The notes beneath the pieces were generated by a model. That model had not been told where the DNA came from. It searched no databases and saw only the letters and a program-made list of their open reading frames with translations. Made by a program: the position numbers and the translations under genes. This document shows positions 9,301 through 37,401 of a stretch of DNA of 64,000 nt, one piece after another. Position 1 is the first letter of the stretch, and each line of letters opens with the position of its first letter. The stretch comes from Candidatus Eiseniibacteriota bacterium (GTDB taxonomy: Bacteria > Eisenbacteria > RBG-16-71-46): NCBI GenBank assembly GCA_041483195.1, contig JBGPFC010000004.1, positions 133,020 to 197,019 on the forward strand. The letters run 5' to 3'.

Positions 9301-9384
9301 CGCCAGCGCGCCCAGCACGACGATGCAGAGCAGCACCATGCCCGCGGTGATCGGGTGACGCAGGCTCCAGCGCGACAGGTTCAT
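6352..9384 (-). CDS. RND efflux permease (AcrB/AcrD/AcrF family)
   Basis: 1010 aa; GMLVDNAVVVLESI, GIVVNNGI, RLRPILMTT motifs. Confidence 0.95.
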   Translation of the reverse strand: MNLSRWSLRHPITAGMVLLCIVVLGALAAPKLPLAFLPDVEFPGIEISIPYPNSLPAQVEEEITRPAEEALSTLSKVRRIQSSSSANESNIYIQFDWGEDIGPLRTEAREKLDRIRDQLPADVDVIQVNSQRSSDIPVLECRVSASRDLSRDYELLNRHIADPLRRVPGVAKVELYGIEPPQVQIDFHLADLERHGIDTRTLLDRLDAASHSMSAGQIHPGDESWPLRVVNQFASLDEIKNFPLTERGLRLTDVATVGYAEPELDYGRHLDQSRAIGLNVIKESGANTVQVARRARSVLESIGRDPQLQGVRVLVFTDQAEEIENSLTGLLRAGLIGGTLAIIVLFLFLRSWVTTLVVGLAIPFSLLAAAALLRFTGRTLNILSMMGLMLAVGMLVDNAVVVLESIYRHRQRGAGPLRAALVGSREVLPAVVSSTATSIIVFLPLVLGGRTEITTWIGEVGRTIIFTLCCSLFLSLTAIPLAMGRLLPSMPVRQLGVITWITERYLRALRWTLSHRPATVGLALLVVATAAVAFGRVDKSAFTASKIEAVRMEYEFADNLNYREVERVVSKLESWIQGRKDSLHVRSTYSYFTHNLAFTRAYLASGYTDDEGANALRKKLRAQLPPLAGVKVKFDDRENGSGPSQLTLRLFGEPGPRLDELAGEMSRRMALVPGLDDVHIGNDKGAQELELHVDRDRAARYGLNTADIAGAVSLFFRGRPLARFRGPEGEVQVQARLAADDRASLAKLQELRLTGAHGEAVPLSVVADFHVVATPQTIERQQRRSVLELNATCDPKKAGEVRKSLTREMGAMSFPSGYSWSFGNGFEEEDQTQKEMLINLVLALMLVYLVMASLFESLLHPFAIMFALPFAFVGIAWICVLTGSPFNLMAQIGLLILVGIVVNNGIVLIHHVHQLRERGVERARAIMDAAHDRLRPILMTTLTTTLGLIPLAFGSEHVGDVLYFPLARTVIGGLLAATVLTLILVPCLYTLLEDGSKLVGRVWRTGPRAA

Positions 9385-9412
9385 CGCCGGCCCGCCCGTG
9401 CGCGCCCGGACA

Positions 9413-12400
9413 TCACGGCCGGCGGTCCAGCGTCGCGTACACCACCGGGATCACGACCAGCGTGAGCAGGGTCGCGAACGAGAGCCCGCCCATGATCGTC
9501 ATCGCCAGCGGCGCCCCCACCTCGGAGCCCTCGCCGATCCCGAGCGACATCGGCAGCAGGCCGAGCACGGTGGTGAGCGTGGTCATGAGGATCGGGCGGA
9601 GCCGCACGGTGCCCGCCGTGATCAGCGCCTCGCGCTTCGGGCGTCCCTCCGCCCGCAGGCGGTTCGTGTAGTCCACCATGATGATCGCGTTCTTCACGAC
9701 GATGCCGGAGAGCACCAGCAGCCCGATCAGCACCATCACGCTCACCGCGTTGTGCGTCAGCACCAGCGTGAGCACCACGCCGATCACGCCCAGCGGGAGC
9801 GTGAACATGATGACGAACGGGTGGAGCAGGGACTCGAACTGGCTCGCCATCACCAGGTAGACGAGGAACACCGCCAGCAGCAGCGCGAAACGGATCGATG
9901 CGAAAGAATCACCCAGCTCGCGATTCTGGCCGGCCAGCGTGACGCGCGCCCCGGGCGGGAGCGCGAGCCCGTCGAGCGAGGCCAGGATGTCGCGAGAGGC
10001 CGAGGCCAGGTCGCGGCCCTTGAGATTCGCGGAGACCACGGCGGCGCGCTGCTGCGCGATGCGCCGGATCTCGCCGGGTCCGCGTTCGACCGACACCAGT
10101 GCGACGCTCGCGAGCGGAACCGGCCGGTCCGCGTTGCGCCCGACCTCGAGATTCGCGAGCTGCGCGACCTGCGAGCGCTGGTCTTCGGTGGCGCGCACCC
10201 GCACGTCGAGCTTGCGATCGACGTCGCTGAACTGCGTCGCGGCCTCGCCCTGCACCGCGTTGCGCACCAGGCGCGAAGCCGAGACCGGATCGAGATGGAG
10301 CGCGGCGAGGCGCTCGCGGTCGAACGAGATCCGGACCTCGGGATCGCCGAAGCGCATCGAGGATTCGACGTCTTCCACCCCGCGGATATCCGCGACCCGG
10401 CGCGCCACCTGGGAGGCGAGGGTGCGGAGCGTGTCGAGGTCGTACGCGTAGACCTCGACCTCGACCGGGCTCTTGAAGGTGAGGAGCTGGGGCCGGCCGA
10501 ACTCGTAGGAGAGCCCCGGCATCTCGTTCATCGAGGCGCGGAGCCGGGCGGCGATCCCCTCCTCGGCTTCACCCGGGCTTCCCGGCTTGAGCACCACCGC
10601 GAGCTGGCCGCGATTGGGCTCGCGCGACCCGCCCGCGAAATCCGAGAGGTCGGTCTGCCCGGCGGTCGTATATGCGAAGCGCACGTGGGGATCGTGCTCG
10701 ATGGTGCGCGCGAGCCGCTCCAGGGTCTCGTCCGTGACATGCAGCGCGGTCCCCTCGGGGAGGCGCAGGTTGAAGTGGAACTCGCCCTGCGCGAACGACG
10801 GGAACAGATTGCGCGGCAGCAGCAGTCCGGCCGTGACCGCCGCCGCGAGCGCGAGCGTGGCCACCGACAGGACGCGGCGCGGATGGCCCAGCGCCGAACG
10901 CACGATCCGCGGGTAGACGCGCTCGAGCGCGTCGTAGCCGGCCTCGACCGGGTAGAAGAGGCGCCGCACCCAGGGACGGAGCACGGGGCCGAGCCACCGC
11001 GTCGCGCGCACGATCATCCGCGGGACGAACAGCACGGCGAACAGCGTCCACGCGATCACGGCGCTCCAGCGTCCGCGGCGCTTCGGGGTCTCGACCAGCG
11101 TGGCGTCCGGATCGGCGACCGGCACGTCGTGGCGGCCGCCGCCGCCGAGCGCGGCGATGGTGGGCACCACGATCAGGGCCACGATCAGCGAGGCCATCAG
11201 CGAGAAGGACACGGTGAGCGCCTGGTCGCGGATCAGCTGGCCCGCCACCCCCTCGACGAACACCAGCGGCAGGAACACGACCACCGTCGTGAGGGTCGAT
11301 GCCGTGATCGCCATCGCCACCAGTCCGGTGCCGCGGCTCGCAGCCGAACGCGCGTCGTGACCCTCCTGGCGGAAGCGGAAGATGCTCTCGAGCACCACGA
11401 TCGAGTCGTCCACCAGCATCCCGACGCCGAGGGCGAGCCCGCCCAGCGACATGAGATTGAGCGAGAGCCCCATGCGGTACATGGCGATGAAGGTCGCGAA
11501 CACCGAGAGCGGGATCGAGAGGCTGATGATGACCGTCGATCGCAGGTCGCGGAGGAAGGCGAAGATCACGAGCACCGCGAGCAGCCCCCCGATCAGGGCG
11601 GAGTTCACGACGTCGCGCACCGACTGCTCGATGAAGCGCGACTGGTCCGCCACCGTCAGGAGCGTCATGCCCGCGGGCAGCGGGATGCGCTTCATCCGCG
11701 CCTTCACGGTGCGCGCCACCGCCACGGTGTTGGCGTCGCCTTCCTTGTAGATCGCGATCTCCACCGCCTCGTCGCGGTTCACGCGGGTCACCAGCTCGCG
11801 CTCCTTCGCGCCGCGGCTCACCGTGGCCACGTCGGCGAGGCGGACCGCGCCATCGGGGCGCGACACGAGCACGATGCCGCCCATCTCCTCGGGCGTGAGG
11901 AACTGATTCGCGACCCGCACCAGGTACTCGGACCGGCCCTCGGTGAGCGAGCCCCCCGCGAGATTGATGTTCTCCTGCCCGAGCCGGCGCGTGACGTCCG
12001 TGAGCGAGAGCCCCGCCGAGGCGAGGCGCTGCGCGTCCACCTCGACGTGGATCTCCTCCTCTTCGCCACCCGCGACCCGCACCGCGGCGACCCCGGGCGC
12101 GCCTTCGAGGTCGGTCTTCAGCGTGCGCTCGGCGATGCGGCGCAGCCGCTGGAGGTTGCCGCCCCCCGCGAGCCGGTAACGCAGGATCGGATCGAGCGAC
12201 GGGTCGAATCTCAGGATGGCGGGACGCTTGGCCTCGCGCGGCAGCGCGACCAGGTCGAGCTTCTCGCGCACGCCCAGCGATGCGAGGTCCATTCGCGTGC
12301 CCGAGCCGAATTCCATCGTGACCTCGGACTGGCCAGGGTGGGAGACGGAATGCATCCGCACGAGTCCTGGCACCACGCCCACGCCCTCCTCGACCGGGCG

Positions 12401-12592
12401 CGTCACGAATTGTTCGACGTCGCTGGGCGCGGCGTCCGGCAGGTCGGTGCGAACGGTGAGCGATGGGTACGAGATGTCGGGCAGGAGATCGACGGACAGC
12501 CGTGAGGCCGCGACCAGGCCGAACACCACGAGCCCCGCGGTCACCATGAACACCGTGACCGGCCGCTGCAGTGACGAGTCGACGAGGCGCAT
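9413..12592 (-). CDS. RND efflux permease (AcrB/AcrD/AcrF family), second subunit
   Basis: MRLVDSSLQRPV start; GMLVDDSIVVLESI, GIVVKNAI, RLRPILMTT motifs. Confidence 0.95.
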   Translation of the reverse strand: MRLVDSSLQRPVTVFMVTAGLVVFGLVAASRLSVDLLPDISYPSLTVRTDLPDAAPSDVEQFVTRPVEEGVGVVPGLVRMHSVSHPGQSEVTMEFGSGTRMDLASLGVREKLDLVALPREAKRPAILRFDPSLDPILRYRLAGGGNLQRLRRIAERTLKTDLEGAPGVAAVRVAGGEEEEIHVEVDAQRLASAGLSLTDVTRRLGQENINLAGGSLTEGRSEYLVRVANQFLTPEEMGGIVLVSRPDGAVRLADVATVSRGAKERELVTRVNRDEAVEIAIYKEGDANTVAVARTVKARMKRIPLPAGMTLLTVADQSRFIEQSVRDVVNSALIGGLLAVLVIFAFLRDLRSTVIISLSIPLSVFATFIAMYRMGLSLNLMSLGGLALGVGMLVDDSIVVLESIFRFRQEGHDARSAASRGTGLVAMAITASTLTTVVVFLPLVFVEGVAGQLIRDQALTVSFSLMASLIVALIVVPTIAALGGGGRHDVPVADPDATLVETPKRRGRWSAVIAWTLFAVLFVPRMIVRATRWLGPVLRPWVRRLFYPVEAGYDALERVYPRIVRSALGHPRRVLSVATLALAAAVTAGLLLPRNLFPSFAQGEFHFNLRLPEGTALHVTDETLERLARTIEHDPHVRFAYTTAGQTDLSDFAGGSREPNRGQLAVVLKPGSPGEAEEGIAARLRASMNEMPGLSYEFGRPQLLTFKSPVEVEVYAYDLDTLRTLASQVARRVADIRGVEDVESSMRFGDPEVRISFDRERLAALHLDPVSASRLVRNAVQGEAATQFSDVDRKLDVRVRATEDQRSQVAQLANLEVGRNADRPVPLASVALVSVERGPGEIRRIAQQRAAVVSANLKGRDLASASRDILASLDGLALPPGARVTLAGQNRELGDSFASIRFALLLAVFLVYLVMASQFESLLHPFVIMFTLPLGVIGVVLTLVLTHNAVSVMVLIGLLVLSGIVVKNAIIMVDYTNRLRAEGRPKREALITAGTVRLRPILMTTLTTVLGLLPMSLGIGEGSEVGAPLAMTIMGGLSFATLLTLVVIPVVYATLDRRP

Positions 12593-12667
12593 CGGATTGC
12601 CTCCGGAAGAGGGTGCTCCGCCCGCGCATGCGGGCGACACGAACGCGCGGGCGCGCGGCGCGGACCG

Positions 12668-13762
12668 CTAGGAGCGCACGACCCGGATCTTCGAACCCTG
12701 CTTCAAGCCGCCCTGCCCCACCGTGACCACGCGCTCTCCCGCCCTGAGCCCGGCGAGGACCTGCGCCGTTTCGTTCTCGACCGCGCCGAGCTTGACCGGG
12801 AGCCGCACCGCGCTGTCACCCCGTGCGACGAACACGAAACTCTCTCCATCCTCGCTCACCACTCCCCGGCGCGGGAGCAGGAGCGCACCCGGGAAGCTTC
12901 CGGTCTGCAGGCTCACGCGCGCGAACGCCCCGGGGCGCAGCGCGCCCTCGGGATTGGGCAGCTCGAGCGTGACCTTGCAAGTGCCGTTGCTCTGGTCCAC
13001 GACCGGATTCAGGCGCACCACGCGCGCCTCGAACGTGCGGCCGGGTTGCGAATCGATCGTGAGGCGCGCCGACTGTCCGACGCGAATCGCGGAGAGATCG
13101 CGCTCTGGGAAGAACAGCCGCACCAGCAGCGGGCTGAACTCGACGAGCTGGAAGCAGGCCTTGCCCGGCGTGACGGTCTCGCCCATGTTGATCTGGCGCT
13201 CGGTGACGCGCCCCGAGAACGGCGCGGTGATGCGGGTGAGATCCAGGTTGTGCTTCGCCTGCTCGAGTTCGACCGAGGCGGTGCGGCGCTTGAGATCGAG
13301 GTCTTCCTGCTCGCGGGGGGAGAGGTAGCCCTGCGCGTGCAGCTGGTCGCCGCGTTCCGCCTCACGCTTCACCACCTCGAACGAGAGGGTGGCGCGGTCC
13401 ACCGCCAGCGAGGCCTCCCGATCCTCGAAGCGCGCGAGCACCTCGCCGGCCTTCACCCACTGGCCTTCCTCCGCCAGGAGCTCGATCACCTGCCCCTCGC
13501 GCCGCGCCATGAGCACGGCGCTGTTGCGCGGCTCGAGCGTGGCCGAGGTCTGGAGGTAGGTCGAGATCGGACCCACCGTGACCGTGCTCAGCTCGACCGG
13601 CGCGGCGGGCGCGGTTTCCTTGTCGGACTTCTTCTTGGCGGGCGCGTTGCTCCCTGCGCTCTTGAACGCGAGGCTCAGGACGACGGCGCTCGCCACCAGC
13701 ACGAAACCGACGGACGACCAGATGATGACGCGCCGGCGGCGATGGCTTGCATGGGCTTCCAT
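12668..13762 (-). CDS. RND efflux periplasmic adaptor (membrane fusion protein)
   Basis: N-terminal TM, lipoyl-like EEGQWVKAGEVL, ITAPFSG, LRPGAFARV, GLRAGERVVT motifs. Confidence 0.93.
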   Translation of the reverse strand: MEAHASHRRRRVIIWSSVGFVLVASAVVLSLAFKSAGSNAPAKKKSDKETAPAAPVELSTVTVGPISTYLQTSATLEPRNSAVLMARREGQVIELLAEEGQWVKAGEVLARFEDREASLAVDRATLSFEVVKREAERGDQLHAQGYLSPREQEDLDLKRRTASVELEQAKHNLDLTRITAPFSGRVTERQINMGETVTPGKACFQLVEFSPLLVRLFFPERDLSAIRVGQSARLTIDSQPGRTFEARVVRLNPVVDQSNGTCKVTLELPNPEGALRPGAFARVSLQTGSFPGALLLPRRGVVSEDGESFVFVARGDSAVRLPVKLGAVENETAQVLAGLRAGERVVTVGQGGLKQGSKIRVVRS

Positions 13763-13916: not shown

Positions 13917-15368
13917 CTAGAGAGGCGCGAACTGCGCCTCGGTGGGTTCCGCTCAGCAATACCATGGCTCGGTGAGAAAGGGCACCGGCGGCCGGTGCGG
14001 CGCCCGTGCGGCGGCCGCGAGCGGCCGCACGCGCTCCCCGGACGCCTCGACCGCGAGCGCGTACGCCCGATCGAACACCACCCCCCGCGCTTCGCCCCGG
14101 CCTGAGGCCTCGGCCACCATCGACTGCACCCGTCCGCACAGCGCGTCGACCCGCGGCTCGGGATGCCGCCACGGATGGCACAGCAGGACCGGGTCGAGCG
14201 GCTGCGCGAGCGCGCGGGCCTCCGGCAGCTCGAGCAGCCGGGACCCCGGCGGGATCAGCAACCGAATCCCGAGCTGAACCGGCGCCACGTGCTCGATCAG
14301 CCCGAGTTCGGCGATGGTCTCGAGCAGCTCGGCGTAGCCCGCCCGCGAGATCCACGGGGTGAACGCGACGAAGGTGGGATGCAGGATCAGGGACTCCTCC
14401 CGGAACAGTCGCACGACCTCGACGAAGTCGGCGCGAGTATGCCCCTTCTCGAGCCGCTCGAGCACGCGGTCGTCCACCGATTCCACCGCGCTCGTCACGA
14501 ATCGGCACCCGGTCTCGCGCAGGGTGGCGAGCTGTTCACGGTGCGCGAGCAGATGCTCGATCTTGATCGTGACGTCGTAGGTGAGGGCGGGGAACTCGGC
14601 GTGCAGCGCCCGCACCAGCGGTATCGCGTGCCCGATGCCGTTCCAGAAGTCGGGATCGCCGAACGTGACGTGCCGCGCCCCGGCCTCGACCTGGCGTCGC
14701 ACGTCATCGAGCACGATCGCGCGCGGCACGACCCGGAAGCGCCCGCCGTAGATCGGAACCACCGGGCAATGGCGGCACAGGTGTTTGCAGCCACGGCTCG
14801 ACTCGGTGTAGCCCACGGTGAGGAGCGAGCCGTCGCCCGGATCGAGCCGCGCGTAGCGATCGAGCGCGGGCAGCCCCTCGCGATCCGGCGCGAGAAACGC
14901 GAGGCGTTCGAGCGAGACGCCGTCGTGCGCGCGTGCGTCGGGGCCCCGGCCCGCGAGGCCCATCGCCCATTCGGTGAGCCCCCGCTCGAACTCACCCGAG
15001 AAACACGCCTCGACGCCCAGCGCCCGCAGCGCTCCCGCGTTCATCGCGGCATAGAGTCCATACGCGGAGAGCGGCGCGCGCGGGTTGAGCGCGCGGACCC
15101 GCGCGATCACCGGCGCCGCGAGCCGGGTCGCGGTATGCATCGGGAGGAAGAAGGCGACGGCGTCGGCCGACCCCGCCGCGACCTCGTCCAGCGGATCGAC
15201 CGCGAGATCGCAACAGACGACCGAGGCCCCCGCGCGGCGCAGCCACGCCGCCGGGGAGGCGAGTCCGAATGGCTGACGGCCGAGGTCGTAGGTCGAGATC
15301 AGCACCACGCGCGGCGCATGGCGCGGGGCGCGGGACTCGGGCGCCTCGGACGACACCGCGCTCTTCAT
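13917..15368 (-). CDS. CUAEP/CCAEP-tail radical SAM selenoprotein (UGA at 13953-13955 read as Sec)
   Basis: B12-binding-like N-domain, SRGCKHLCRHC (CxxxCxxC). The C-terminus reads PFLTEPWYC-TGA-AEPTEAQFAPL-TAG, with a SECIS-like hairpin after the TGA. Confidence 0.88.
13922..13940 (-). promoter_or_regulatory. Putative bacterial SECIS element
   Basis: GAGGCGC-AGTTC-GCGCCTC: perfect 7-bp stem starting 12 nt 3' of the in-frame UGA, G at loop position 2. Confidence 0.75.
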
Positions 15369-15402
15369 CGGCCGACGGTTCCGGCGTCCAGGAGCCCGGC
15401 GC

Positions 15403-16008
15403 TCATTCGAGCGGCGAGCGGCCGCCTTTCGCGGGCTGGTAATAGGGGTTCCTCCCCCCCGCGTGATCGGTGCTGTCCACGATCTCGCGGATCGCGGGGA
15501 CCGCGTCGCGGATCCGCACCTCGATGCCCTGCTTGAGCGTGACGTCCACCATGCCGCAGCCCTGGCAGCCGCCGCCGAGGCGGATGTACGCGACGTCGCC
15601 CTTCACGTCGAGCAGCGTCACGTTGCCGCCGTGCGAGGCCACGGCCGGATTGATCTCGTCGTCGAGCACCTTCTGGACCGCCAGCGCCGTGGGGTCCGAC
15701 CACAACGGGTTCGGGTTGTCGATCTTGAATCCGCTGCCGTATGACGATTCGACGTAGTCGATGCTCGCCCCCGTCAGCAGCGGCACGCTGGGCTGGTCGA
15801 TCATCACCGGCAGGCCGCCCACCTCGAATCCCACGTCCTCCGGCGTGCGCTCGCTCTCCGGCACGAACGCGAGCCGGTACTGGAATCCGCCCGGGCCGCG
15901 GCCCACGACGCCCATTCGGAGGCCGAGCCCGTCGCGGCCCTCGGCCTGCATCAACTCGCGAATCTTCGCGAGCCCCGCCTCGGAAATCGTGATCAACGCT
16001 GCCGTCAT
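15403..16008 (-). CDS. nfuA: Fe-S cluster carrier NfuA (A-type-like domain + NifU-C domain)
   Basis: ITISEA..., GASIDY...GFKIDNPN, EINPAVASHGG, GGGCQGC, TLKQGIE, DSTDH...NPYY. Confidence 0.92.
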   Translation of the reverse strand: MTAALITISEAGLAKIRELMQAEGRDGLGLRMGVVGRGPGGFQYRLAFVPESERTPEDVGFEVGGLPVMIDQPSVPLLTGASIDYVESSYGSGFKIDNPNPLWSDPTALAVQKVLDDEINPAVASHGGNVTLLDVKGDVAYIRLGGGCQGCGMVDVTLKQGIEVRIRDAVPAIREIVDSTDHAGGRNPYYQPAKGGRSPLE

Positions 16009-17306
16009 GCCTCGCTCCCTTCAACCCCGGATGCCCGCGCCCCGGCGCGCGGCGTGCGGGGATCGATGTCGAACGTCAGGTGCCGATGCGCCTCGCGCAA
16101 CGCCGCCTCCACCTGCTCGGGCAGCTCGCCGCGCGCGAAGATGAAGCCCAGGTAACGATCCCCCTCCGGCAGCGGTACGAGCTCCTGCCCGGGCGGAACG
16201 GTGATGCGCAGCTCGTCGATCAGGTCCACGCCGCGCGCGGCGTCAACGCCGCCCACGGCGCGCAGCACGCCCGCCCGCGGGATGGGAATCATCATGACCC
16301 CCGAGGCGCAGCGTTCGCGCTCGAGCGCCGCGACGTCGACGCCGAGCGCATCGCTCAGAATCAGCGCCTCGAGCGACACGCCGTCGCCGAATCGGAGCGA
16401 GCGCGAGCATAGCCCGCCGATGCTGCGCGGGGCAATCTCGAGCGGCCACGCGCCGGCCGTGTTCCAGCGCAGCTCGGCGTGCACCGGTCCCTGCCCGAGC
16501 CCGATCGCGGCGACGGCCCGCGCGGCCGCCGCCTCGATCGCCCGTTGCGTCGCACGATCCAGGCGTGAAGGGGTGACGTAGATCGTCTCCTCGAAATACG
16601 GGCCATCGAGCGGATCGGGCTTGTCGAAGATCGCGAGCACCCGCAGCGCCCCGCGCGTGACCAGCCCTTCGACCGCGACTTCGATCCCGGGAATGTAGTC
16701 CTCGATCAGGATCTCCGTGGCGAGCGCCCCACCCGCCGCCGCGACCTCGGGGCGCGCGAGCAGCGCTGCGATGCGCCGGAACGCCACGGCCAGCGCCCCG
16801 GGATCGTCCGCGCGGATCACCCCGCGGCTCGCCGCGAGGAACAGCGGTTTGAGCACGCAGGGGTACTTGACCCGCGCCGCGATCGCCTCCGGCCCTGCGC
16901 TCACCGCGCAGCGCGCGATCCGCGGCGTGAGCAATCCCGCGCGCGCGAAGGCCTCGCGCGTCGCGAGCTTGCTGCGGGCGGTGCGCACCGCCGCTGCGGA
17001 ATGGTGCGGCAGGCGCAGCGCCTCTGCGGCGCGCGCGGCCAGCAGCACGCCCTCGTCGTCGGCGGCGATCACAGCGTCCAGCGGATGCTCGCGCGCGAAC
17101 GCCTCGATCGCGCGGGTCGCGGCGTCCGCGTCTCCGAACGCGAGCGCCAGGTTCCCGGCCGGGTTGAGGGGCGCGAGCGCCTGCGGCCGGTCGGTCGCGA
17201 CGACCGCCTCCGCGCCGATGGCCCGCGCGGCGTCGAGGAACGCACCGGCGCGGTAGGACGCCGTGGTCATCAGCAGCAGCACGCGCGGTCTGCGGGATGC
17301 GCTCAA
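16005..17306 (-). CDS. ATP-grasp domain protein (L-amino-acid-ligase-like)
   Basis: YPCVLKP..AASRGV, IEDYIPGIE, IFDKPDPLDGPYFEETIYVTPS, HAELR, EIAPRSIGG. TTG start overlaps the upstream stop (TTGA); the stop overlaps the nfuA ATG (ATGA). Confidence 0.88.
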   Translation of the reverse strand: MSASRRPRVLLLMTTASYRAGAFLDAARAIGAEAVVATDRPQALAPLNPAGNLALAFGDADAATRAIEAFAREHPLDAVIAADDEGVLLAARAAEALRLPHHSAAAVRTARSKLATREAFARAGLLTPRIARCAVSAGPEAIAARVKYPCVLKPLFLAASRGVIRADDPGALAVAFRRIAALLARPEVAAAGGALATEILIEDYIPGIEVAVEGLVTRGALRVLAIFDKPDPLDGPYFEETIYVTPSRLDRATQRAIEAAAARAVAAIGLGQGPVHAELRWNTAGAWPLEIAPRSIGGLCSRSLRFGDGVSLEALILSDALGVDVAALERERCASGVMMIPIPRAGVLRAVGGVDAARGVDLIDELRITVPPGQELVPLPEGDRYLGFIFARGELPEQVEAALREAHRHLTFDIDPRTPRAGARASGVEGSEA

Positions 17307-19660
17307 CGCCGGCCCCGATTCGCGAGCCGCTCGAGCTCGGCGCGCGCGTCGCGCCCCACGTCGCTCGCGGCCGGGGCGCGGCCCGCGACCCACTCCAGCT
17401 CGCCGCGCGCGGCCGATGCTGCGCCCAGCCGCGACAGCGCGCGTCCGTGCTGCAATCTCAGATACGGCAGCAGGGGATCCGCGCCGCCCGCGCGAGCGAG
17501 CGTGCGCTCGATCGCGACGTTCGCCTCCCGCCACGCCCCGAGCTCCGCGGCGCAGGCCACGTACGCGAGACACGGGAGCACTTCGGCGGGCCGCATGACG
17601 TGAATCGCCTCCGCGAGCGGCATCGCCGCGGCCATGCGGCCGAGGCCGGCGAAATCGTAGGCCATCCGTTCGGCGAACGGGCGGACGTTCGATGCGAAGA
17701 ACGCATCGAGGCCCAGCACCCAGGGCGCTGGCGAACCGTCCGGCCGGCGCAGCGCGCCGCCGGTCCGCCCTTCCGGCGGAACCGCGACCGACTCGAACTC
17801 GAGCCGGTAGGGACGCGGCACCGTGGCCGCCCACCACAGCGGATCCAGATCGCCGAGACGCTCGAGCGAGGCGCGCGCCCGCTCTCCCAGGCGGTACACC
17901 CGGATCTCGGGACCGGTCACGTCGCCCCCGGGATCGAATCGCGCGGCGAGCACCGCGCTCGAGTCGAGAAACGCGTAGAAGCGGCGCTGGGCGGGGAAGC
18001 TCGACGGCTGCGCCTCGTAGCGGCCTCGAATCGCCCCGCTGGTGAACACGTAGTCCACGCCGTGCAGCAATCGCAGATCGTAGAAGATCTGGTTGATCGC
18101 CTGGGGCTGCGGGTACACGACGAGCCGCCGCTTCGTACCGTCCGGCAGATCCAGCATCGCGGTGGCCTGCCCGGCCACCACCAGCGGGAGATCGACCGAT
18201 GAATAGGTGCGACGCGCGAGGAGACGCCGCTGGAACGGCGCGCTCGCCGCCCCGAATCCGCGACTCGAGCGCACCACCGCGACCCGCTGGCGCGTGAGCA
18301 GCTCGCCGCTGTACCCCTCGCGCAGCAACAGGTCTTCCGGCTTCACGTGCGACTCGCACCAGCGCCGCGCCTCCACCTGGGTGTCGTCCCTTCCGCTCGC
18401 GCCGGTCCGTACCCCCGCCGGCAACACCGGAAGCGCGAGCGACAGCGCCGCCAGCGCCCCCGCGAACCGCCGCACCCGGCCGATGCGGCCGAACAGGTCG
18501 ACGGCGGCGGCGGCGGCCAGCAGCGCGGCGATCGGAATCAACGGCATGAGATAGCGCTCGGCCTCGACCCGCGCGAGCGAGATCGCGACCCCGAGCGGCA
18601 GCATGAACAGCCAGAGCGCGGCGCGGTCGGCGTTCGCGCGCGGATGACGCAGCGTGAACGCGAGCGAGGCGCCGAGCAGGGCGAGCCCCGGCCAGCCGAT
18701 GTCGCGCGCGAGCGTGCCGAGCTGGAACAGGAATCCGCGCCGGTCCGCGCTTCCGAGATGGCCCTGCGCCATGTGGAGGCTCTCGAACGCGAAATCCTTT
18801 CGGAACTGCGCGAAGTCGATGGCGACATAGGGCGAGCTGATCAGGAACACGCCGAGCGCCGCGACGCAGGCCAGCGCCCACAGCGGCAGCGCGCGCACCC
18901 CGCGGCGTTCGAGCAGCACCCATGCGAGCGGAACCACGAGCGCCGCGGCCGGATACTTGCAGCCGGCCGCGAGCCCCAGGCACGCGGTCGCGGCGATCAG
19001 GGCGCCGCGGTGACCGGTCGCGCGCCAGCTCAGCATGCGTTCGAGCGCGACCGCTGCGAACGCGGTCATCGGCGTGTCGGTGTAGATCGCTCGCGAGGTC
19101 AGGATCATGGTGGGCGCGATCGCGACCACCGCAGCTGCCGCGAGGCCCGCGCCGCGCCGCATGCGCTCGCCGATGCGCACCACGGCGATCAGGGTCACAG
19201 CATCCGCGATCACCCCGATGAGCCGCGCCGCGATCACCATCGGCGTGGGATCGGTCTCGTAGGCGGTGAGGTAGTCCGCGAGGCTCGCGTAGTAGTGGAT
19301 CGCGCGTCCCGCCATCAGGGTGATTCCCTGCACCAGCAGCTGAAGGTAGATGGTGAGCGATGGGTAGTTGAAGAAGTGCGGGTTCCAGTCGACGCGGCCC
19401 TCGCCTGTCCACATCCGGAGCGCGATCTTGAAGGGAATGGCCTCGTCGAGGACATCCGGCAGTCCGTAGCCGATGTGCCACAGCCGCAGCGCGAGGCCGG
19501 CCGCGAGCAGCGCGATCGCGGCCGCGATCGTGCGCGCGTCCATCGACGCCCGCCCGGCTTCCGCCGGCGGCGCCGGCGGCGCCGGCGCGCCCGGCGCGGC
19601 CGCGGCCGCCGCCGCCGCGCGGGCGGCGCGTGCGCGGCCGCGCCGGGGGGGTGGCTTCAT
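17303..19660 (-). CDS. GT-C fold (ArnT/PMT, family 39-like) polytopic glycosyltransferase with a large C-terminal soluble domain
   Basis: LRLWHIGYGLPDVLDE, PHFFNYPSL, YTDTP, GCKYP, ERYLMP motifs with many TM helices. Alternative start at 19543. Confidence 0.8.
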   Translation of the reverse strand: MKPPPRRGRARAARAAAAAAAAPGAPAPPAPPAEAGRASMDARTIAAAIALLAAGLALRLWHIGYGLPDVLDEAIPFKIALRMWTGEGRVDWNPHFFNYPSLTIYLQLLVQGITLMAGRAIHYYASLADYLTAYETDPTPMVIAARLIGVIADAVTLIAVVRIGERMRRGAGLAAAAVVAIAPTMILTSRAIYTDTPMTAFAAVALERMLSWRATGHRGALIAATACLGLAAGCKYPAAALVVPLAWVLLERRGVRALPLWALACVAALGVFLISSPYVAIDFAQFRKDFAFESLHMAQGHLGSADRRGFLFQLGTLARDIGWPGLALLGASLAFTLRHPRANADRAALWLFMLPLGVAISLARVEAERYLMPLIPIAALLAAAAAVDLFGRIGRVRRFAGALAALSLALPVLPAGVRTGASGRDDTQVEARRWCESHVKPEDLLLREGYSGELLTRQRVAVVRSSRGFGAASAPFQRRLLARRTYSSVDLPLVVAGQATAMLDLPDGTKRRLVVYPQPQAINQIFYDLRLLHGVDYVFTSGAIRGRYEAQPSSFPAQRRFYAFLDSSAVLAARFDPGGDVTGPEIRVYRLGERARASLERLGDLDPLWWAATVPRPYRLEFESVAVPPEGRTGGALRRPDGSPAPWVLGLDAFFASNVRPFAERMAYDFAGLGRMAAAMPLAEAIHVMRPAEVLPCLAYVACAAELGAWREANVAIERTLARAGGADPLLPYLRLQHGRALSRLGAASAARGELEWVAGRAPAASDVGRDARAELERLANRGRR

Positions 19661-19670
19661 CCCGCCGCCA

Positions 19671-20687
19671 TCACCCGCGCGGCCCGGCCGCCGCGCGGCG
19701 CCCGCCCAGTTCGATCGCGGTCCCGGCCCCCGCCGCCTCGGCCCGAACCCACACCGCGTGCGCGGCCGCCAGATCCTCGACCGCGAGCCCCAGCGACTCG
19801 AAGAGCGTGATCTCGTCGCGGGTCGCCCGTCCCGGATGCGCGCCGCTCACCAGCTCGCCCAGCTCCGCGCGGATGTGCCCGGCCCCGATCGCGCCCTCGG
19901 CGATCGGGATCAGGATGTCCCCCGCTTCCTGCAGCGCCGATTCGCGCCGGTCCACGAAGAGTCGCGCCCGCGCGACCGCCGCGGTGTCGAGCTCGCGGGC
20001 GTCGCGGAAGCACGCGCCCACCGCGTTGACGTGCGCCCCCTCCGCGAGCCACGCGCCATCGAGCACCGGCGTTCGCGAGGCGGTGGTCGTGCACACCAGA
20101 TCCGCGCCATCGACCGCCGCGCGGGCCGAGGCGCACACCTCGATCGCGAGCCCGAGCCGCGCGGACTCCCGCGCCGCGAAGCCACGCGCGCTCGCGGGGC
20201 TCCGGCTCCACACCCGGACGCGCCGCAGCGGCCGCACCGCGGCCATCGCCCGGGCGTGGCTCGCCGCCTGCACCCCGGCGCCGAGCAGCGCGAGATCGCC
20301 GGCGTCTTCGCGCGCGAGGCACCGGGTCGCGAGCCCGCTCACCGCGGCGGTGCGGAGCGCCGTGATGGCGCTCGCGTCCACGATCGCCCGCAGGCTGCCG
20401 CGTACGGTCTCGAACACCAGCACCACGCCCTGGTGGGAATCGAGCTCGGTGCCGTGATTGCCCGGCATCACCGTGACCACCTTGATGCCGATCGCGAGCG
20501 GGCTGCCGGTGTACGCCGGCATGAGTCCGAGCAGGCCGCTGCGATCGGGGAGCCAGACCATCGAGCGCAGCGGTTGCACGGCGTCGCCGCGCGCGAGCGC
20601 CTCGAACACCTCGCGCATCACCTCGATGCACTCGAGCATCGGGAGCAGCGCCTCGACCTCCGCCTGCGCGACGACCCGCACGCTCAC
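19671..20687 (-). CDS. Ornithine cyclodeaminase / mu-crystallin family protein
   Basis: LMPAY, GIKVVTV, ITALRTAAVS, GAGVQA, GAHVNAVG, ITLFESLGLAVEDLAAA. GTG start overlaps the upstream stop (GTGA). Confidence 0.92.
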   Translation of the reverse strand: MSVRVVAQAEVEALLPMLECIEVMREVFEALARGDAVQPLRSMVWLPDRSGLLGLMPAYTGSPLAIGIKVVTVMPGNHGTELDSHQGVVLVFETVRGSLRAIVDASAITALRTAAVSGLATRCLAREDAGDLALLGAGVQAASHARAMAAVRPLRRVRVWSRSPASARGFAARESARLGLAIEVCASARAAVDGADLVCTTTASRTPVLDGAWLAEGAHVNAVGACFRDARELDTAAVARARLFVDRRESALQEAGDILIPIAEGAIGAGHIRAELGELVSGAHPGRATRDEITLFESLGLAVEDLAAAHAVWVRAEAAGAGTAIELGGRRAAAGPRG

Positions 20688-21658
20688 GGGGCCGCCCGGC
20701 TCGCGGCATCGAGCGCCGCCGCGAAGCGCGCCGGATCGATGTTGCCGCCCGAGACGATCGCGGCCACGCGCGCCCCGCGCGGCAGGCTCACGCGACCGGC
20801 GATCAGCGCCGCGGTGGCGGCGGCGCCCGCGCCTTCGGCGCAGAGCTTCGCCCGGCTCGCGAGCCACAGCATCCCCGCCCGGATCTGCGCCTCGCTCACC
20901 GTGACGATCTGGTCGACGCACTCGCGCGCGATCGCGAGCGGAAGCGCTCCCACGAAGGGCGGCGTCATGCCGTCCGCGAGCGTGTCCGCGGGCCTCGCCA
21001 CCGGGATCGGCTTTCCAGCCGCGAGCGCCGGCGCGAGGCCCGGACCCGCCTCGAGCTCGACCGCGATCACGCGCGCGGCCGGGCGAAGCTGCTTCACAGC
21101 GCTCGCGACGCCGCCCATGAGTCCGCCCCCTCCGACCGGAACGACGACCGCATCGACCCCGGGCAGATCTTCGACGATTTCGAGCCCGACCGTTCCCGCG
21201 CCGGCCAGCACCACCTCATCGTCGAACGGATGGACGAAGGTCGCGCCGGTCGCGGCGCGCACCGCTTCGAGCTTCTCGAACAGCGTGGCGCGATCCGGGT
21301 GGAGGATCACCTCGGCGCCGTAGCCGCGCACCGCTTCGATCTTGGCGCGCGGCGCCGAATCCGGCATCACCACCGCGCACGGCACCCCCACCGCGCGCGC
21401 CGCCCACGCCACCGCCTGCGCGTGGTTGCCCGCCGAGACCGTGACCAGTCCGCGCGCGCGCTCCTCAGGGGTGAGCGTGAGCACGCGGTTCAGCGCGCCG
21501 CGCGCCTTGAACGAGCCCGTCTTCTGAAAGCTCTCGCACTTGAGCAACAGCTCCACCCCGGCGCGCGCGCCGATCGCGCGGCTCGAGAGCAGCGGCGTGC
21601 GATGCAGCTGGCCGCGGATGCGGGCGGCCGCCGAGCGAATCGCCTCCAGCTCGATCAT
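20684..21658 (-). CDS. PLP-dependent threonine/serine dehydratase family protein
   Basis: HRTPL, KCESFQKTGSFKARGA, SAGNHAQ, VPVGGGGL, SGGN. Confidence 0.92.
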   Translation of the reverse strand: MIELEAIRSAAARIRGQLHRTPLLSSRAIGARAGVELLLKCESFQKTGSFKARGALNRVLTLTPEERARGLVTVSAGNHAQAVAWAARAVGVPCAVVMPDSAPRAKIEAVRGYGAEVILHPDRATLFEKLEAVRAATGATFVHPFDDEVVLAGAGTVGLEIVEDLPGVDAVVVPVGGGGLMGGVASAVKQLRPAARVIAVELEAGPGLAPALAAGKPIPVARPADTLADGMTPPFVGALPLAIARECVDQIVTVSEAQIRAGMLWLASRAKLCAEGAGAAATAALIAGRVSLPRGARVAAIVSGGNIDPARFAAALDAASRAAP

Positions 21659-21961
21659 GCGCGGGGAGGGCGAGCGCGCGGAGCGGCAGGGCCCGGACCC
21701 GGGCGCGGCGAGCGCATGGAACGATGGGCGGACATCGGGGCGGCGGGGCTCCTCGCGGTGGGGGTCTCGGCCATCTTAGCATTCCCGCGGCGAGCGGGGC
21801 GCTGGCCGCCGCGCCGCTCGACCCGCGATCCGTCCCATCATTCCGGCCTCGACAGGCGCGCGCCGCCGATTCTACACTCGACGCTTCGCATCCCTTCATC
21901 GCGCCGGCGCCCCGCAGCGGGCCGCCGGTGCCGCGCCGCTCCATCGACTCACGAGGCCGCC

Positions 21962-23023
21962 ATGTCACCGCCGCATTCGCTTCGATCTCGGGCGAGCGCC
22001 ATCTCCGCGCTCGCGCTGATCTGCATGGCGCTCGCGCCGGTGCCCGCCGCGGCGACCGACCCTCAGCCCCCCACGCCGCAGGAGCAGCAGATCTTCCAGC
22101 AGAAGCTGGCCCGGTTGAAGTCTCACTCCAACCTGTACCCCGCGAACGGGGGAATCGCGAGCGTGCTGAACAGCCTGGACCACATGGTCACCATCCCGCT
22201 GATCTGCGGCACCGGGGATCCGGTCACGCGCGTCGAGGTCCGCGTGAACACCACGTTGAAGAAGTGGGACGCCGCGCTGGTGAAGGCCCGGCTCGGGAGT
22301 GAAGGCAAGGTCGGCGCCTACCTCTGGAACTACGAGGTCACCGTGGTCGACGGGGTCAAGATCATCACTTGCGACAACTGGATCATGCTCGACCCGGCCG
22401 TGAGCGGGCCGCAGGAGGGCAATCCGCCGATCGGGCCGATCGCCGACGAGACGCTTCTCTACCACGAACTGCTGCACGGGCAGCTGCTGCTCGACTCGGT
22501 GATGACGTCCGCGGCCTGGAAGCAGAACGTGTGCGCATGCAACGCCCCCGACCTCGCATCGAGCGACCCCGACCACGCCGTGATCGCGGGACTCGAGGAG
22601 GCGTTCATGACCGCGCTCGCGGGCGGCACCTCCGCCGTGCGCATGGTCCGTCCGCCCGCGCAGCCCGCGGACGGTGACGGCAAGTTCTCGATCGACCTGG
22701 GCGCGATCGAGAAGGAGAACCTCACGGTCACGCCGTACTATCCCGACGGCAGCAACGTGGATCCGGCAGACGTCACCGTCGAGCTGCCCGAGAACGGGCA
22801 CGTCATCGTCAAGGGCAAGCTCACCGACAAGACGAAGCGCGGCTACATCCTGGTGCACGTCGATCCGCCGACCCTCTACGTCGTCGCGGGGATCGAGCAG
22901 GCGATCGTGATCCTTCCGACCTCGGTTGCCCCGGGGCTCGACGGATGGCGGCTCGGCCTGCTGGCTGCGCTGATCCTCGCGAGCGCGCTGGTGGTGGTGA
23001 GGCGCAGGGAGCGCCGGGGCTGA
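21962..23023 (+). CDS. Secreted HExxH-motif protein with a C-terminal membrane anchor / sorting-like signal
   Basis: Signal peptide (ALALICMALAPVPAAA), LYHELLHG, and a C-terminal APGLDGWRLGLLAALILASALVVVRRRERRG. Confidence 0.7.
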   Translation: MSPPHSLRSRASAISALALICMALAPVPAAATDPQPPTPQEQQIFQQKLARLKSHSNLYPANGGIASVLNSLDHMVTIPLICGTGDPVTRVEVRVNTTLKKWDAALVKARLGSEGKVGAYLWNYEVTVVDGVKIITCDNWIMLDPAVSGPQEGNPPIGPIADETLLYHELLHGQLLLDSVMTSAAWKQNVCACNAPDLASSDPDHAVIAGLEEAFMTALAGGTSAVRMVRPPAQPADGDGKFSIDLGAIEKENLTVTPYYPDGSNVDPADVTVELPENGHVIVKGKLTDKTKRGYILVHVDPPTLYVVAGIEQAIVILPTSVAPGLDGWRLGLLAALILASALVVVRRRERRG

Positions 23024-24535: not shown

Positions 24536-25792
24536 CTAGTGCCCGTGCCCTCCGCTCCGGGATAACACGTCGGCGACCACCACCGACGGGTAGCGGCTCA
24601 GGAAACCCTGCACCACCCAGCCGAACAGGCCGAGAAATCCGATCGTCACGCCGATCTCCGGCAGGCCCAGCCACACCCGGTCGGGGTTGAGCGACGGCAT
24701 CACCAGGATGTGCCGCTCCATCCACAGGCCGGAGAGGATGATCAGGCTGAACAGCGCGAGCCAGAACGGGCTCTTCTTGGTCGCCATGTTCATGAGCCCC
24801 AGGAAGGGGAGCAGGAAGACGAACGTGAACGCCGTGAAACCCAGCGCCCGCCACGGCTCCTCGAAGCGCAGGAACACCCAGCCGGTCTCCTCCGGCAGGT
24901 TGCCGTACCAGATGACGAGATACTGCGCCCAGAATTGATAGACCCAGAAGATGCTGAAGCCGAACGCGAGCTTTCCGATGTCCCAGAAATGGTCGCGCGT
25001 GATATAGGCCTCGAGGCGATAATGCCCGCGTAGGCGCGTGAGGAGAAACGCGACCATCGCGATGCCGGAAAGGAACGCGCCCATGAAGAACCACCAGCCG
25101 AACAGCGTGCTCGCCCACTCCGGCGTGAGCGACATGACGTAGTCCCAGCACATCACCGTGTACACGATCGCGTACAGCACGCAGATCAGCGGCGCGCGCT
25201 TGGCGAGGCGGTCGCGCTGCCACTCGACCTCCTCCGCGTCGCCGCGCCAGCCCTCGCACAGCTTCTCGTAGGCGGGCCGGAGCGTCGGATCGACGTGCGA
25301 CTTGAGCAGGTAGGCGTCGGTGCGCAGCGAGACCCGCACCATGTCGCGCGACAGCCACCACAGCAGGCCGAGCCCGATCAGGGTGCGCGCGTAAAGGAAC
25401 GGCACGTTAAGATACGCGGCCTGCCGCGGCTCGACGTATTTCGTCCACGGCAGATAGGTCCGGATCCCCATGACGAGCAGGATCACCATGAGCCCGTAGC
25501 CGATCGGCAGGAAGGCCGAGAGCGATTCGGCCACCCGCACCACCGGCCCGGCCCAGCGGCCGTTCGCGAGCCGGATGCCGCATGCCAGCACGATCGCGCC
25601 CTGCGCGATGCCCATCCAGTAGAGCGTGTTGATCGCGTAAGAGCCCCACGCCCGCTGCGGCTCGCGCACGAACAGGAACGCGAGGGAGGCCAGGCCGATC
25701 GCCATGCACAGCATCCACAGCTGGCGCCGCCGCGGATTGGGCGTGACCGGCAGCTTGCCGGCGATGTCCGCGAGGATCGCGTCGTGGCTCAT
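24536..25792 (-). CDS. actF: Alternative complex III membrane subunit ActF
   Basis: Polytopic; WDYVMSLTPEWASTLFG, WDIGKL.F..FW.Y..WAQYLVIWYGNLPEE; last gene of the act cluster. Confidence 0.85.
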   Translation of the reverse strand: MSHDAILADIAGKLPVTPNPRRRQLWMLCMAIGLASLAFLFVREPQRAWGSYAINTLYWMGIAQGAIVLACGIRLANGRWAGPVVRVAESLSAFLPIGYGLMVILLVMGIRTYLPWTKYVEPRQAAYLNVPFLYARTLIGLGLLWWLSRDMVRVSLRTDAYLLKSHVDPTLRPAYEKLCEGWRGDAEEVEWQRDRLAKRAPLICVLYAIVYTVMCWDYVMSLTPEWASTLFGWWFFMGAFLSGIAMVAFLLTRLRGHYRLEAYITRDHFWDIGKLAFGFSIFWVYQFWAQYLVIWYGNLPEETGWVFLRFEEPWRALGFTAFTFVFLLPFLGLMNMATKKSPFWLALFSLIILSGLWMERHILVMPSLNPDRVWLGLPEIGVTIGFLGLFGWVVQGFLSRYPSVVVADVLSRSGGHGH

Positions 25793-26340
25793 CGCGGGCT
25801 CGTCTTCTGCCGGTGGCGGATGAAGTTCACGATGTTCCACGCCTCCTCGGCGGTCACCTGCGCGCCGTAGGCCGGCATGACCACCCCGCCGAAGCGGATG
25901 TACGAGTAGATGAATCCGTCCTTGCGATTGCGGGTCGCCTCCGCGAGCAGATCGGGCGGCGGCATGAAGAGCGGCGCGACCGGACCGTCGCCGGCGAGGG
26001 CCGTGCCGTGACATGGCACGCAGGTCTTGATGAACTTCTGCTCGCCACGCGCGATCGAGGAGTCGGAGGGCTCGACCGGGTTCACGCGGGATTGCCCGCG
26101 CTCGTACGGCGGGTCCTCGCCGGCCTGGTCGCGGCCGGTCACCGGCACGCTCGCATCGTCCGGCGCGCGCACCACGAGCTTCTGCGGCGGGATCGCGACC
26201 GAGGTGCGCATGTCGCGGATCGGGTAATAGCTCAGGTGAGTCGCCGAGCGGGTCGCGTCCCGGCAGCCCTGCTTCGCGTTGCCCACCGTGAACATCGTGA
26301 GCACGCCGAGCAGCACCACGCCCACGATCGCCTTAGGCAT
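25789..26340 (-). CDS. actE: Alternative complex III monoheme cytochrome c ActE
   Basis: Single CVPCH, GDGPV, MPAYG, AWNIVNFIR motifs. Confidence 0.85.
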   Translation of the reverse strand: MPKAIVGVVLLGVLTMFTVGNAKQGCRDATRSATHLSYYPIRDMRTSVAIPPQKLVVRAPDDASVPVTGRDQAGEDPPYERGQSRVNPVEPSDSSIARGEQKFIKTCVPCHGTALAGDGPVAPLFMPPPDLLAEATRNRKDGFIYSYIRFGGVVMPAYGAQVTAEEAWNIVNFIRHRQKTSPR

Positions 26341-26887
26341 GGACCGTCACCTCCTCGGCGCCGTGGCCACGCATCGTCTCCTGCGCCCGCAGCGCCTCCT
26401 CGCCGGAGCACGGGACCCAGATGCCGATCCGGTCCTGGCTGAACCTCGGATCGTACGGGGCCTTCGCCTTGAGCTGCGGCAGCCGCGCCAGCGCCAGCAT
26501 GCCGAGCAGGTTGGCGATCGAGCCCAGCAGGATCATGGACTCGTAGCCGATCACGACGAACGGCGGCAGCGAGATCAGCTCCTTGCCGCCCACCACCAGC
26601 GGGTAGGAGAGCACCGAGTAGATGCACAGCGCGAAGCCTCCCGTGAGGCCGCACACCGCGCCGCCGAACGTCACCCATCGCACCAGCGACGGACCCTTCT
26701 CGAGCGCCGATTCGATCGAATGATACGGCACCGGCGAGTACACGCTCAGCTGCCGATGCCCCTGCTGGCGGAGCGTGCGCACCGCCTCCGTGGCGTCGTC
26801 CACGTAGTAGTAGATCCCCATCACGCCGTGGAACTTCTGCGGCGGGCCGGCGATGAGCCTTTCGACGGTGCGCTCGACGGTCTGCAT
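26333..26887 (-). CDS. actD: Alternative complex III subunit ActD (DUF3341)
   Basis: YSPVPYH, two TM helices, YPLVVGGK, YE..IL, YDPRFSQD. Confidence 0.87.
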   Translation of the reverse strand: MQTVERTVERLIAGPPQKFHGVMGIYYYVDDATEAVRTLRQQGHRQLSVYSPVPYHSIESALEKGPSLVRWVTFGGAVCGLTGGFALCIYSVLSYPLVVGGKELISLPPFVVIGYESMILLGSIANLLGMLALARLPQLKAKAPYDPRFSQDRIGIWVPCSGEEALRAQETMRGHGAEEVTVHA

Positions 26888-26892
26888 CAGGC

Positions 26893-28263
<1,371 letters not shown>

Positions 28264-28276
28264 GCGCGGCCCTCGT

Positions 28277-31393: not shown

Positions 31394-31400
31394 CTGGCCC

Positions 31401-36937: not shown

Positions 36938-37401
36938 GATCTATCTCCGGTCGCGCGCTGCGCCGCGGGTGCGGCGCCCGGCACGAGCTCCAGCGGTTCG
37001 GGTTCGAATCGCGAGCGATCCTCGGCGAGCCGCCACGCGCGCGAGTCGCGCGCCGCGCCGCCCTCGACGCTCACGATCAGGTACGAATAGTAGGGCCATG
37101 CGTGCTCGAGATCGAATGCCGAGGGCCGGGCGGGGTGATCCGGGTGCGAATGGAAGAAGCCGAGGACCTCGAGCCCTTCCGCGCGCGCCGCGCGGTCCGC
37201 CTCGAGAAATTGCTCGGGGGCGATCAGGTAGCGGTTGCCCCTCGAGTCCTCGCGCCGGTTCTCGAAAGCGACCACACGCTCGACCTCGCGCCACGCCCCG
37301 GCTTCGCGCCCGAGCATCACGCCGCAGCCCTCCTCGGGATACGCGCGACACAGGTGTGCGTGGATCTGCTCGGTGTGCAACGCGCGCATGCGCAGGCTCA
37401 T
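36934..37401 (-). CDS. JAMM/MPN+ (M67 family) metalloprotease, Mec-like
   Basis: YPEEGCG and FFHSHPDHPARPSAFD (E...HxH-x7-S-x2-D). ATGA overlaps on both sides. Confidence 0.92.
   Translation of the reverse strand: MSLRMRALHTEQIHAHLCRAYPEEGCGVMLGREAGAWREVERVVAFENRREDSRGNRYLIAPEQFLEADRAARAEGLEVLGFFHSHPDHPARPSAFDLEHAWPYYSYLIVSVEGGAARDSRAWRLAEDRSRFEPEPLELVPGAAPAAQRATGDRS

Follow-up and report, generated by a model that had tools for sequence, protein, structure and literature searches.

A selenocysteine-containing relative of the radical SAM enzyme ArsL recurs with an amino-acid ligase and a replaceable Fe-S helper protein

The radical S-adenosylmethionine (SAM) enzyme ArsL cleaves the Cγ-S bond of SAM to yield methylthioadenosine and an aminocarboxypropyl (ACP) radical, which ends on As(III). 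Its RCCLKC tail holds the As(III), the tail Cys residues are required and no extra cluster is found on the tail; in addition, the enzyme was active as purified, with cobalamin unmentioned (10.1101/2024.02.01.577332). The available part of a second report describes arsenic on all three tail Cys residues and an Fe-ACP intermediate (10.64898/2026.04.29.721666). The accessible portions of the ArsL literature describe ArsL as unique among CxxxCxxC radical SAM enzymes in forming an ACP radical. Here we analysed a stretch of 64,000 nucleotides from a Candidatus Eiseniibacteriota bacterium (GenBank assembly GCA_041483195.1, contig JBGPFC010000004.1), hereafter the window, which encodes a homologue of ArsL with a selenocysteine in its tail. 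A preliminary description had read this gene and five upstream genes as a coupled operon and a candidate pathway. The conserved core consists of three of them, the radical SAM enzyme of the CUAEP family, an ATP-grasp ligase and a replaceable Fe-S helper.

The radical SAM gene (13917-15368, minus strand) encodes a protein of 483 residues, which scored 618 bits against the model NF040546 (cut-off 500), 249 bits against the ArsL model NF040542 (cut-off 450) and 45 bits against the third family, placing it within NF040546 and outside ArsL. It comprises a B12-binding-like N-terminal domain, a CKHLCRHC cluster motif and a WYC-U-AEP tail, in which an in-frame UGA (13953-13955, minus strand) encodes selenocysteine (Sec) 472 and reads through as PWYC-U-AEPTEAQFAPL. 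A hairpin resembling a selenocysteine insertion sequence (SECIS) starts 12 nt past the UGA and lies within the last codons (13922-13940, minus strand). The genome encodes selA, selB and selD, all over their cut-offs, and a tRNA-Sec. Thus the C-(U/C)-A-E-P tail, the UGA with its SECIS-like hairpin and the Sec machinery expected for NF040546 are all present.

For comparison, 182 further loci were examined: the best 80 of 585 stretches from species-representative genomes, mostly Acidobacteria, 22 loci from the phylum of the window, and the best 80 of the 587 loci that an actinobacterial query matched in metagenomes. Many of the loci are short, and 107 have flanks of 2 kb or more on both sides. 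With the window added, the tail could be parsed in 178 of 183 sequences, with a TGA in 69 and a Cys codon in 109. A full stem of five pairs in a fixed register was found in 49 of the 67 distinct TGA tails versus 2 of 103 Cys tails; the hairpin of the window has a C-G pair at a position where most have A-U. The same DNA is also present in sediment metagenomes, and contigs from three of four other sediment runs cover the codon without differing letters. The tail and hairpin census together with these contigs rule out a sequencing error or a true stop, and the selenoprotein proposed in the preliminary description was borne out. The family is large: it numbers at least 585 stretches from species-representative genomes and 569 sequence clusters with E below 1e-30, some of the latter perhaps of the ArsL type; in a sample of an actinobacterial order, 2 of 251 genomes were positive. 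The available part of a paper by Haft and co-worker lists NF040546 as uncharacterised and argues that CU/CC motifs mark heavy-metal binding (10.1101/2022.07.06.499078).

The annotation of a family member on a Thermomicrobium roseum plasmid (L138:7977-9413) stops at WFC, and is thus truncated at the probable Sec codon. Two more probable selenoproteins were seen in the genome of the window, another ArsM-like gene whose matching stretch contains a TGA (G000:C1:43339-44100) and a selD with an in-frame TGA beside tRNA-Sec (G000:C9:87187-88583).

Neighbourhood analysis revealed which partners travel with the radical SAM gene. In the genome, phylum and metagenome sets, respectively, the ligase was found at 65, 18 and 47 loci, YggX at 59, 2 and 35, and Nfu at 6, 17 and 6. 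Rarer neighbours were DUF169 (8, 0 and 8) and RND genes (1, 6 and 0). Among the 107 loci with sufficient flanks, the ligase lies within 3 kb of the radical SAM gene in 87, and Nfu or YggX does so in 86, with both together in none. A similar picture emerged from 151 genomes of the phylum, 23 of which encode the radical SAM enzyme and 21 a ligase orthologue (above 370 bits), and all 21 of the latter are among the 23. In one of the 21 genomes the two genes are unlinked; the two radical SAM genomes lacking a ligase are 87-88% complete and have the gene near a contig end. Seven weaker ligase matches (151-178 bits) were excluded from this count, because none of the five that were checked occurs with a CUAEP enzyme. 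Since kin are not independent, the genome counts are descriptions rather than tests. The partner counts and the co-occurrence in the phylum reduce the conserved core to the CUAEP radical SAM enzyme, the ligase and a replaceable Fe-S helper. The preliminary description had proposed an uncharacterised pathway with ATP-grasp, Nfu and radical SAM genes as its most likely core and the rest as possible passengers, and both points hold across the 182 loci and 151 genomes.

The logic of bacilysin is a dipeptide that bears a warhead amino acid. The ATP-grasp gene of the window (16005-17306, minus strand, with a TTG start) encodes the Pfam set ATPgrasp_N, ATP-grasp_4 and LAL_C2, the same three domains as in the amino-acid ligases BL00235 and BacD/YwfE, which are also its best sequence matches in the PDB (BL00235, E 8e-37; BacD, E 2e-12). 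The ATP-binding Lys and Glu residues and the loop Arg (K113, K153, E202, E278 and R294) are invariant in 43 aligned rows, and judged by this architecture and these ATP-site residues the protein is of the L-amino-acid-ligase type. Different from BacD, it belongs to a separate orthologous group, scoring 51 bits on the BacD model (cut-off 850). Cys300 in the motif RSIGGLC (codon 16407-16409, minus strand) is invariant in 109 of 109 sequences. The RSIGGLC loop aligns with the Arg-Phe-Ala-Gly-(Trp/Ala)-Asn-Met loop of BacD, of which Met334 is presumably also a pocket residue. The window ligase has Gly at the position of BacD Trp332, a binding-pocket residue according to the available part of a report (PMC6920838), and the invariant Cys two residues on. 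Such a thiol in the substrate loop would fit a thiophilic substrate handed over by the radical SAM enzyme.

The NfuA-like gene (15403-16008, minus strand) encodes an A-type domain followed by a NifU domain with a CQGC motif (Pfam Fe-S_biosyn and NifU), the two-domain architecture of NfuA. As it scored 133 bits on TIGR03341, below the cut-off of 269, the protein is classed as NfuA-like. The gene adjoins the radical SAM gene in 17 of the 22 phylum loci, and YggX takes its place in most other lineages. In a subset of 42 of the 151 phylum genomes, Nfu was found in 20 of 22 genomes with the radical SAM gene and, at full length, in 7 of 20 without. The arrangement resembles LipA-NfuA in that a radical SAM gene lies beside an NfuA-type carrier. 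It differs in that the window enzyme has no second three-Cys cluster motif and that YggX stands in for the carrier in most lineages. The analogy drawn in the preliminary description is weakened by this replacement and by the NfuA-type genes in genomes lacking the radical SAM enzyme.

These helpers bear directly on an alternative in which sulfur or selenium is inserted, the reading nearest to the LipA comparison of the preliminary description. The Cys-Sec tail would carry a persulfide, a selenotrisulfide or an auxiliary Fe-S cluster reloaded by NfuA or YggX, and the ligase would couple the resulting sulfur or selenium amino acid. The mutually exclusive presence of Nfu or YggX at most flanked loci is in line with it, as are the DsrE-, TusA- or TusD-like genes and cysteine desulfurase seen in a few loci and the lack of arsenic transport and reduction genes near the CUAEP genes (182-183 loci). 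However, YggX is not known to act as a sulfur donor, 7 of 20 genomes lacking the radical SAM gene have NfuA-type genes as well, as expected for a general carrier, and the CUAEP tail offers just two ligands. Moreover, the homologous ArsL tail binds no auxiliary cluster (10.1101/2024.02.01.577332). We consider this chemistry unlikely.

Judged by sequence, ArsL is by far the nearest family of the CUAEP radical SAM enzyme. The window enzyme aligns with ArsL over its full length with 30-35% identity, with the same domain order and CxxxCxxC motif. Its WYC-U pair aligns with the CC of the ArsL KRCCLKC motif, and both families have the same N-terminal domain (Pfam) with a common G-x-Y-A motif. An alignment of 59 CUAEP rows, picked for full length (51 of 65 full-length matches, seven without the tail, plus eight locus proteins), and 117 ArsL rows revealed 47 positions that are at least 85% conserved in both families. 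In a quick tree of 47 rows with two outgroups, CUAEP and ArsL form one branch with a support of 99. ArsL is a compact clade in this tree (support 99) and CUAEP is more diverse; the placement of ArsL as sister to CUAEP or nested within it has a support of 59, and ArsL might be a specialised offshoot of the CUAEP family.

Nevertheless, clear differences were found between the two families. Besides the score on the ArsL model, the CU/CC-AEP tail sits on an insertion of roughly 45 residues in place of RCCLKC, and Sec occupies 69 of the 178 parsed tails. The partners also differ, being a ligase and an Fe-S helper for CUAEP versus ArsM, ArsQ and ArsN1 in the ars operon for ArsL; both ArsL-family loci that were viewed lie in arsenic operons. 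The RCCLKC (ArsL-family) arsenic locus of a Priestia plasmid (L140:4427-14729) also has an ATP-grasp gene, possibly a case in which an ACP-arsenic enzyme and a ligase came together independently. With 25% identity, this ATP-grasp protein was rejected as a member of the window ligase subfamily. Taken together, score, tail and context show that the CUAEP enzyme is not ArsL, although the homology suggests that it likely works like ArsL.

An AlphaFold model of the radical SAM enzyme has a mean predicted local distance difference test (pLDDT) value of 94.9, with an ordered tail (91-92) after a looser linker (71). A sequence search of the PDB returned no ArsL or CUAEP structure, and the nearest entries were 9ccb, named only 'radical SAM core domain', and AprD4 (6fd2). 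The Pfam match to the B12-binding domain is weak (23 bits, cut-off 32). The two PDB entries, this match and the corrinoid-type neighbours CpaM and HgcAB-like protein at three loci would suit conventional radical SAM chemistry, with a 5'-deoxyadenosyl radical or a class B-like methylation of a tail-bound substrate. Yet ArsL, which shares the N-terminal domain and the G-x-Y-A motif, is active as purified without mention of cobalamin, and we regard such chemistry as quite improbable.

Given the ArsL homology, the alignment of C-U on CC and the ordered tail, the most economical inference is ACP transfer to a soft atom bound on the tail. In the proposed mechanism, the CUAEP enzyme would cleave the Cγ-S bond of SAM in the manner of ArsL to generate an ACP radical. 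The Cys-Sec tail would bind a soft atom, a metalloid, onto which the ACP group would be transferred. The product would be a metalloid-bearing amino acid, which the ligase would then join into a dipeptide. That the core makes a metalloid amino acid and ligates it into a dipeptide is our tentative proposal, with nearly as much for it as against it. The substrates, each chemical step and the action of the ligase on the radical SAM product are all inferred. Because the CUAEP tail has two ligands and that of ArsL three, the acceptor that we would guess first is a mono-substituted arsenical, for example methylarsenite; the dipeptide would then contain a residue similar to arsinothricin. According to the available part of a review, the 'MCCA' mutant of ArsL is the best catalyst on methylarsenate (PMC13598754). 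An arsenic acceptor or product in particular is itself a guess, and a rather doubtful one. From its name only, we take the 'MCCA' variant to keep the CC and lose the last Cys.

A broader version of the proposal is a widespread orphan pathway for an undescribed organometalloid peptide, in which CUAEP would be a second and more diverse CxxxCxxC class that makes ACP radicals. Its Cys-Sec clamp may alkylate methylarsenite or another soft metal or metalloid in one step, and the Cys-lined ligase may package the product as a Trojan-horse dipeptide. We hold this version possible, though somewhat doubtful.

CUAEP loci are not located in arsenic operons: a strong ArsM-like gene was found at one and ArsR-family genes at two of the 182-183 loci. 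The genome of the window encodes an ArsM over the cut-off. However, co-occurrence with ArsM is uninformative as an arsenic test, with the gene present alike in phylum genomes with and without the radical SAM enzyme. Counted raw over the 183 loci, the minority neighbours are organometal or organometalloid genes, which favour the metalloid reading: MerB-like genes (5), SaoD/DsrE (4), CpaM with an HgcAB-like protein (3) and ArsM-like genes (1). Some of the MerB-like genes have a CALD motif and some are without the Asp. In one locus (L061:23-5175), two ArsR-family regulators flank the radical SAM gene and DUF169, with a fusion of the ligase and a GNAT acetyltransferase coming next. At three loci (L168:1457-6699, L169:8007-14028 and L173:1066-5338) the genes immediately downstream of the radical SAM gene encode CpaM and an HgcAB-like corrinoid/ferredoxin protein, the latter scoring over the cut-off. 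L169 has a triple fusion. Two of these loci have SaoD/DsrE nearby, and L168 has a cysteine desulfurase.

Three further loci (L034:11446-16417, L191:3593-9425 and L222:9137-15777), two of them actinobacterial, combine a CCAEP radical SAM gene with a keto-acid C-methyltransferase-like gene, an aminotransferase and a HilA/WelO5-like 2-oxoglutarate enzyme. They also carry one or more MerB-like genes and DUF169, with no ligase match; in both L034 and L222, one MerB-like gene has CALD and another is without the Asp. This set looks like a separate amino-acid tailoring cluster, and its tailoring genes beside the radical SAM gene fit an amino-acid product.

Several observations weigh against a metalloid dipeptide made in the manner of ArsL. 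The CUAEP tail is without the third Cys of the KRCCLKC motif, which is found in 117 of 117 ArsL sequences, and single Cys-to-Ala changes are cited in the available part of one report as abolishing ArsL activity (10.64898/2026.04.29.721666). At thirteen positions each family has its own fixed residue, among them His for Tyr within the cluster motif. A nearby ligase is missing at 20 of the 107 flanked loci. No gene for ArsB, ArsC, ArsH, ArsN1, ArsQ or aquaporin was found at the 182 loci, and a transporter gene of the window genome, which we take to be Acr3-like, had no match in the 183 loci. ArsM is present in 22 of 23 genomes that carry the radical SAM gene and in 19 of 20 that do not. In addition, organometal neighbours are a small minority, and neither an exporter nor a self-resistance gene proved to be conserved among the loci. 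The acceptor could instead be sulfur, selenium or another metal, and the module could serve in stress.

The last possibility can be worded as a module against metal stress. The three proteins would capture a metal or metalloid that is thiophilic and toxic to Fe-S proteins and alkylate or conjugate it for disposal, or would modify a protein, with no free bioactive dipeptide formed. The constant partners are indeed Fe-S protection proteins, genes for thioredoxin, peroxiredoxin, OsmC and Rdx recur at the loci, and the pair lies among housekeeping genes in many acidobacterial loci, with no exporter conserved. Against it speak the domain set of the ligase, which is that of free-amino-acid ligases, and the three loci with amino-acid tailoring enzymes. 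Like the insertion of sulfur or selenium, a stress module has in our view a small chance of being correct; the metalloid dipeptide remains the reading that we tentatively prefer.

The other genes of the locus are likely bystanders. They encode a pyridoxal phosphate (PLP) fold-II enzyme of the Ser/Thr-dehydratase type (20684-21658), an ornithine cyclodeaminase/mu-crystallin (OCD) family protein (19671-20687) and a GT-C/PMT_2 membrane glycosyltransferase (GT; 17303-19660), all on the minus strand. The open reading frame coordinates and profile matches confirmed the six genes on one strand, with the junctions and families given in the preliminary description: a GTGA overlap between PLP and OCD, 10 nt between OCD and GT, a TTGA overlap between GT and ATP-grasp, an ATGA overlap between ATP-grasp and the NfuA-like gene, and 34 nt from there to the radical SAM gene. 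The 10-nt gap holds for the reading frame as called. It is the weak junction, because the first 39 GT residues are of low complexity and the alignments with GT homologues begin only around Met40 (19543, the probable start), which would widen the gap to 127 nt. A scan for promoters and terminators inside the cluster gave none above shuffled sequence, a scan that is weak in this genome of 70% G+C. Overall and third-position G+C are similar across the cluster genes.

The preliminary description likened the PLP and OCD enzymes to SbnA and SbnB, which make diaminopropionate, and proposed that the genes could build, ligate and modify an unusual amino acid. In a full six-gene pathway, diaminopropionate would be ligated, modified, glycosylated and exported by the RND pump. 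Three of the junctions overlap by 4 nt and the gaps between these same-strand genes are short, which favours such a pathway, as does the presence of PLP, OCD or GT upstream in three same-genus genomes. However, the likeness to SbnA/SbnB is limited to a PLP fold-II enzyme beside an OCD-family enzyme. The PLP enzyme scored 65 bits on the SbnA model (TIGR03945, cut-off 350) and the OCD protein 152 bits on the SbnB model (TIGR03944, cut-off 327), and both are nearer to other families (Ser/Thr dehydratases; imine reductases and cyclodeaminases) with none over its cut-off, the best for the PLP enzyme being threonine ammonia-lyase with 318 bits. The diaminopropionate route was rejected on these scores. 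PLP, OCD and GT were each found at 2 of the 22 phylum loci, only in close kin, and at none of the 160 genome and metagenome loci. The neighbourhood comparison suggested in the preliminary description thus upheld the ligase and Nfu/YggX as partners and failed for these three (2 of 182 loci each).

All six genes together were found at none of the 182 loci, one same-genus contig ending before the position of OCD. Among the three same-genus genomes, one has PLP and OCD without GT, one has PLP and GT without OCD, and one has GT at the contig start; osmC is inserted ahead of the ligase in all three. In the subset of 42 phylum genomes, 14 of the 22 that have the radical SAM gene and 6 of the 20 that lack it encode OCD homologues; for GT homologues the counts are 10 of 22 and 5 of 20. 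PLP, OCD and GT each have paralogues elsewhere in the genome. The RND adaptor and two permeases (6352-13762, minus strand; adaptor 12668-13762) start 154 nt beyond the radical SAM gene and are lineage-limited neighbours outside the conserved core, present at 6 of 22 phylum loci with other genes in between and at 1 of 80 and 0 of 80 loci elsewhere. The six-gene unit and a dedicated RND exporter were therefore rejected on synteny and genome profiles, and we consider a six-gene pathway highly improbable.

The radical SAM family is already catalogued as NF040546. A literature search found no description of its pairing with a dedicated ligase and Nfu or YggX, with subscription journals and preprint supplements, which may mention the family, outside its reach. 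The present analysis adds the passenger status of the flanking genes, the 21/21 profile of the ligase, the exclusivity of Nfu and YggX and the invariant ligase Cys, together with the lack of a third Cys in the tail and of an ars context, and the MerB, HgcAB and SaoD neighbours. The CUAEP family is the nearest relative of ArsL and often has selenocysteine at the predicted substrate clamp. It could uncover a new carbon-metalloid bond-forming reaction and a new role of selenocysteine, and perhaps an inhibitor of the glutamine-synthetase type in peptide form. The exact gene arrangement of the window is a local variant, and the family matters more. The reduction from six genes to a core of three with a tracking ligase makes an experiment short and cheap.

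In two genomes of the same genus, iodothyronine-deiodinase-like genes lie between the radical SAM gene and the RND adaptor (L106:12703-13086 and L107:10025-10399). An open reading frame on the plus strand (21230-23023) has no Pfam or NCBIfam match. It is likely coding from about 21963, with a start resembling a signal peptide, a zincin-like HELLH motif and a C-terminal membrane anchor. The operon at 24536-31931 (minus strand) contains a cytochrome c, a molybdopterin/Fe-S subunit and NrfD-like membrane subunits and reads like alternative complex III, by labels taken from the translations rather than a family scan. A sulfur-carrier set, with a CysM-like cysteine synthase and a ThiS-MoeB-rhodanese fusion, is located 14 kb upstream (35465-38336, minus strand).

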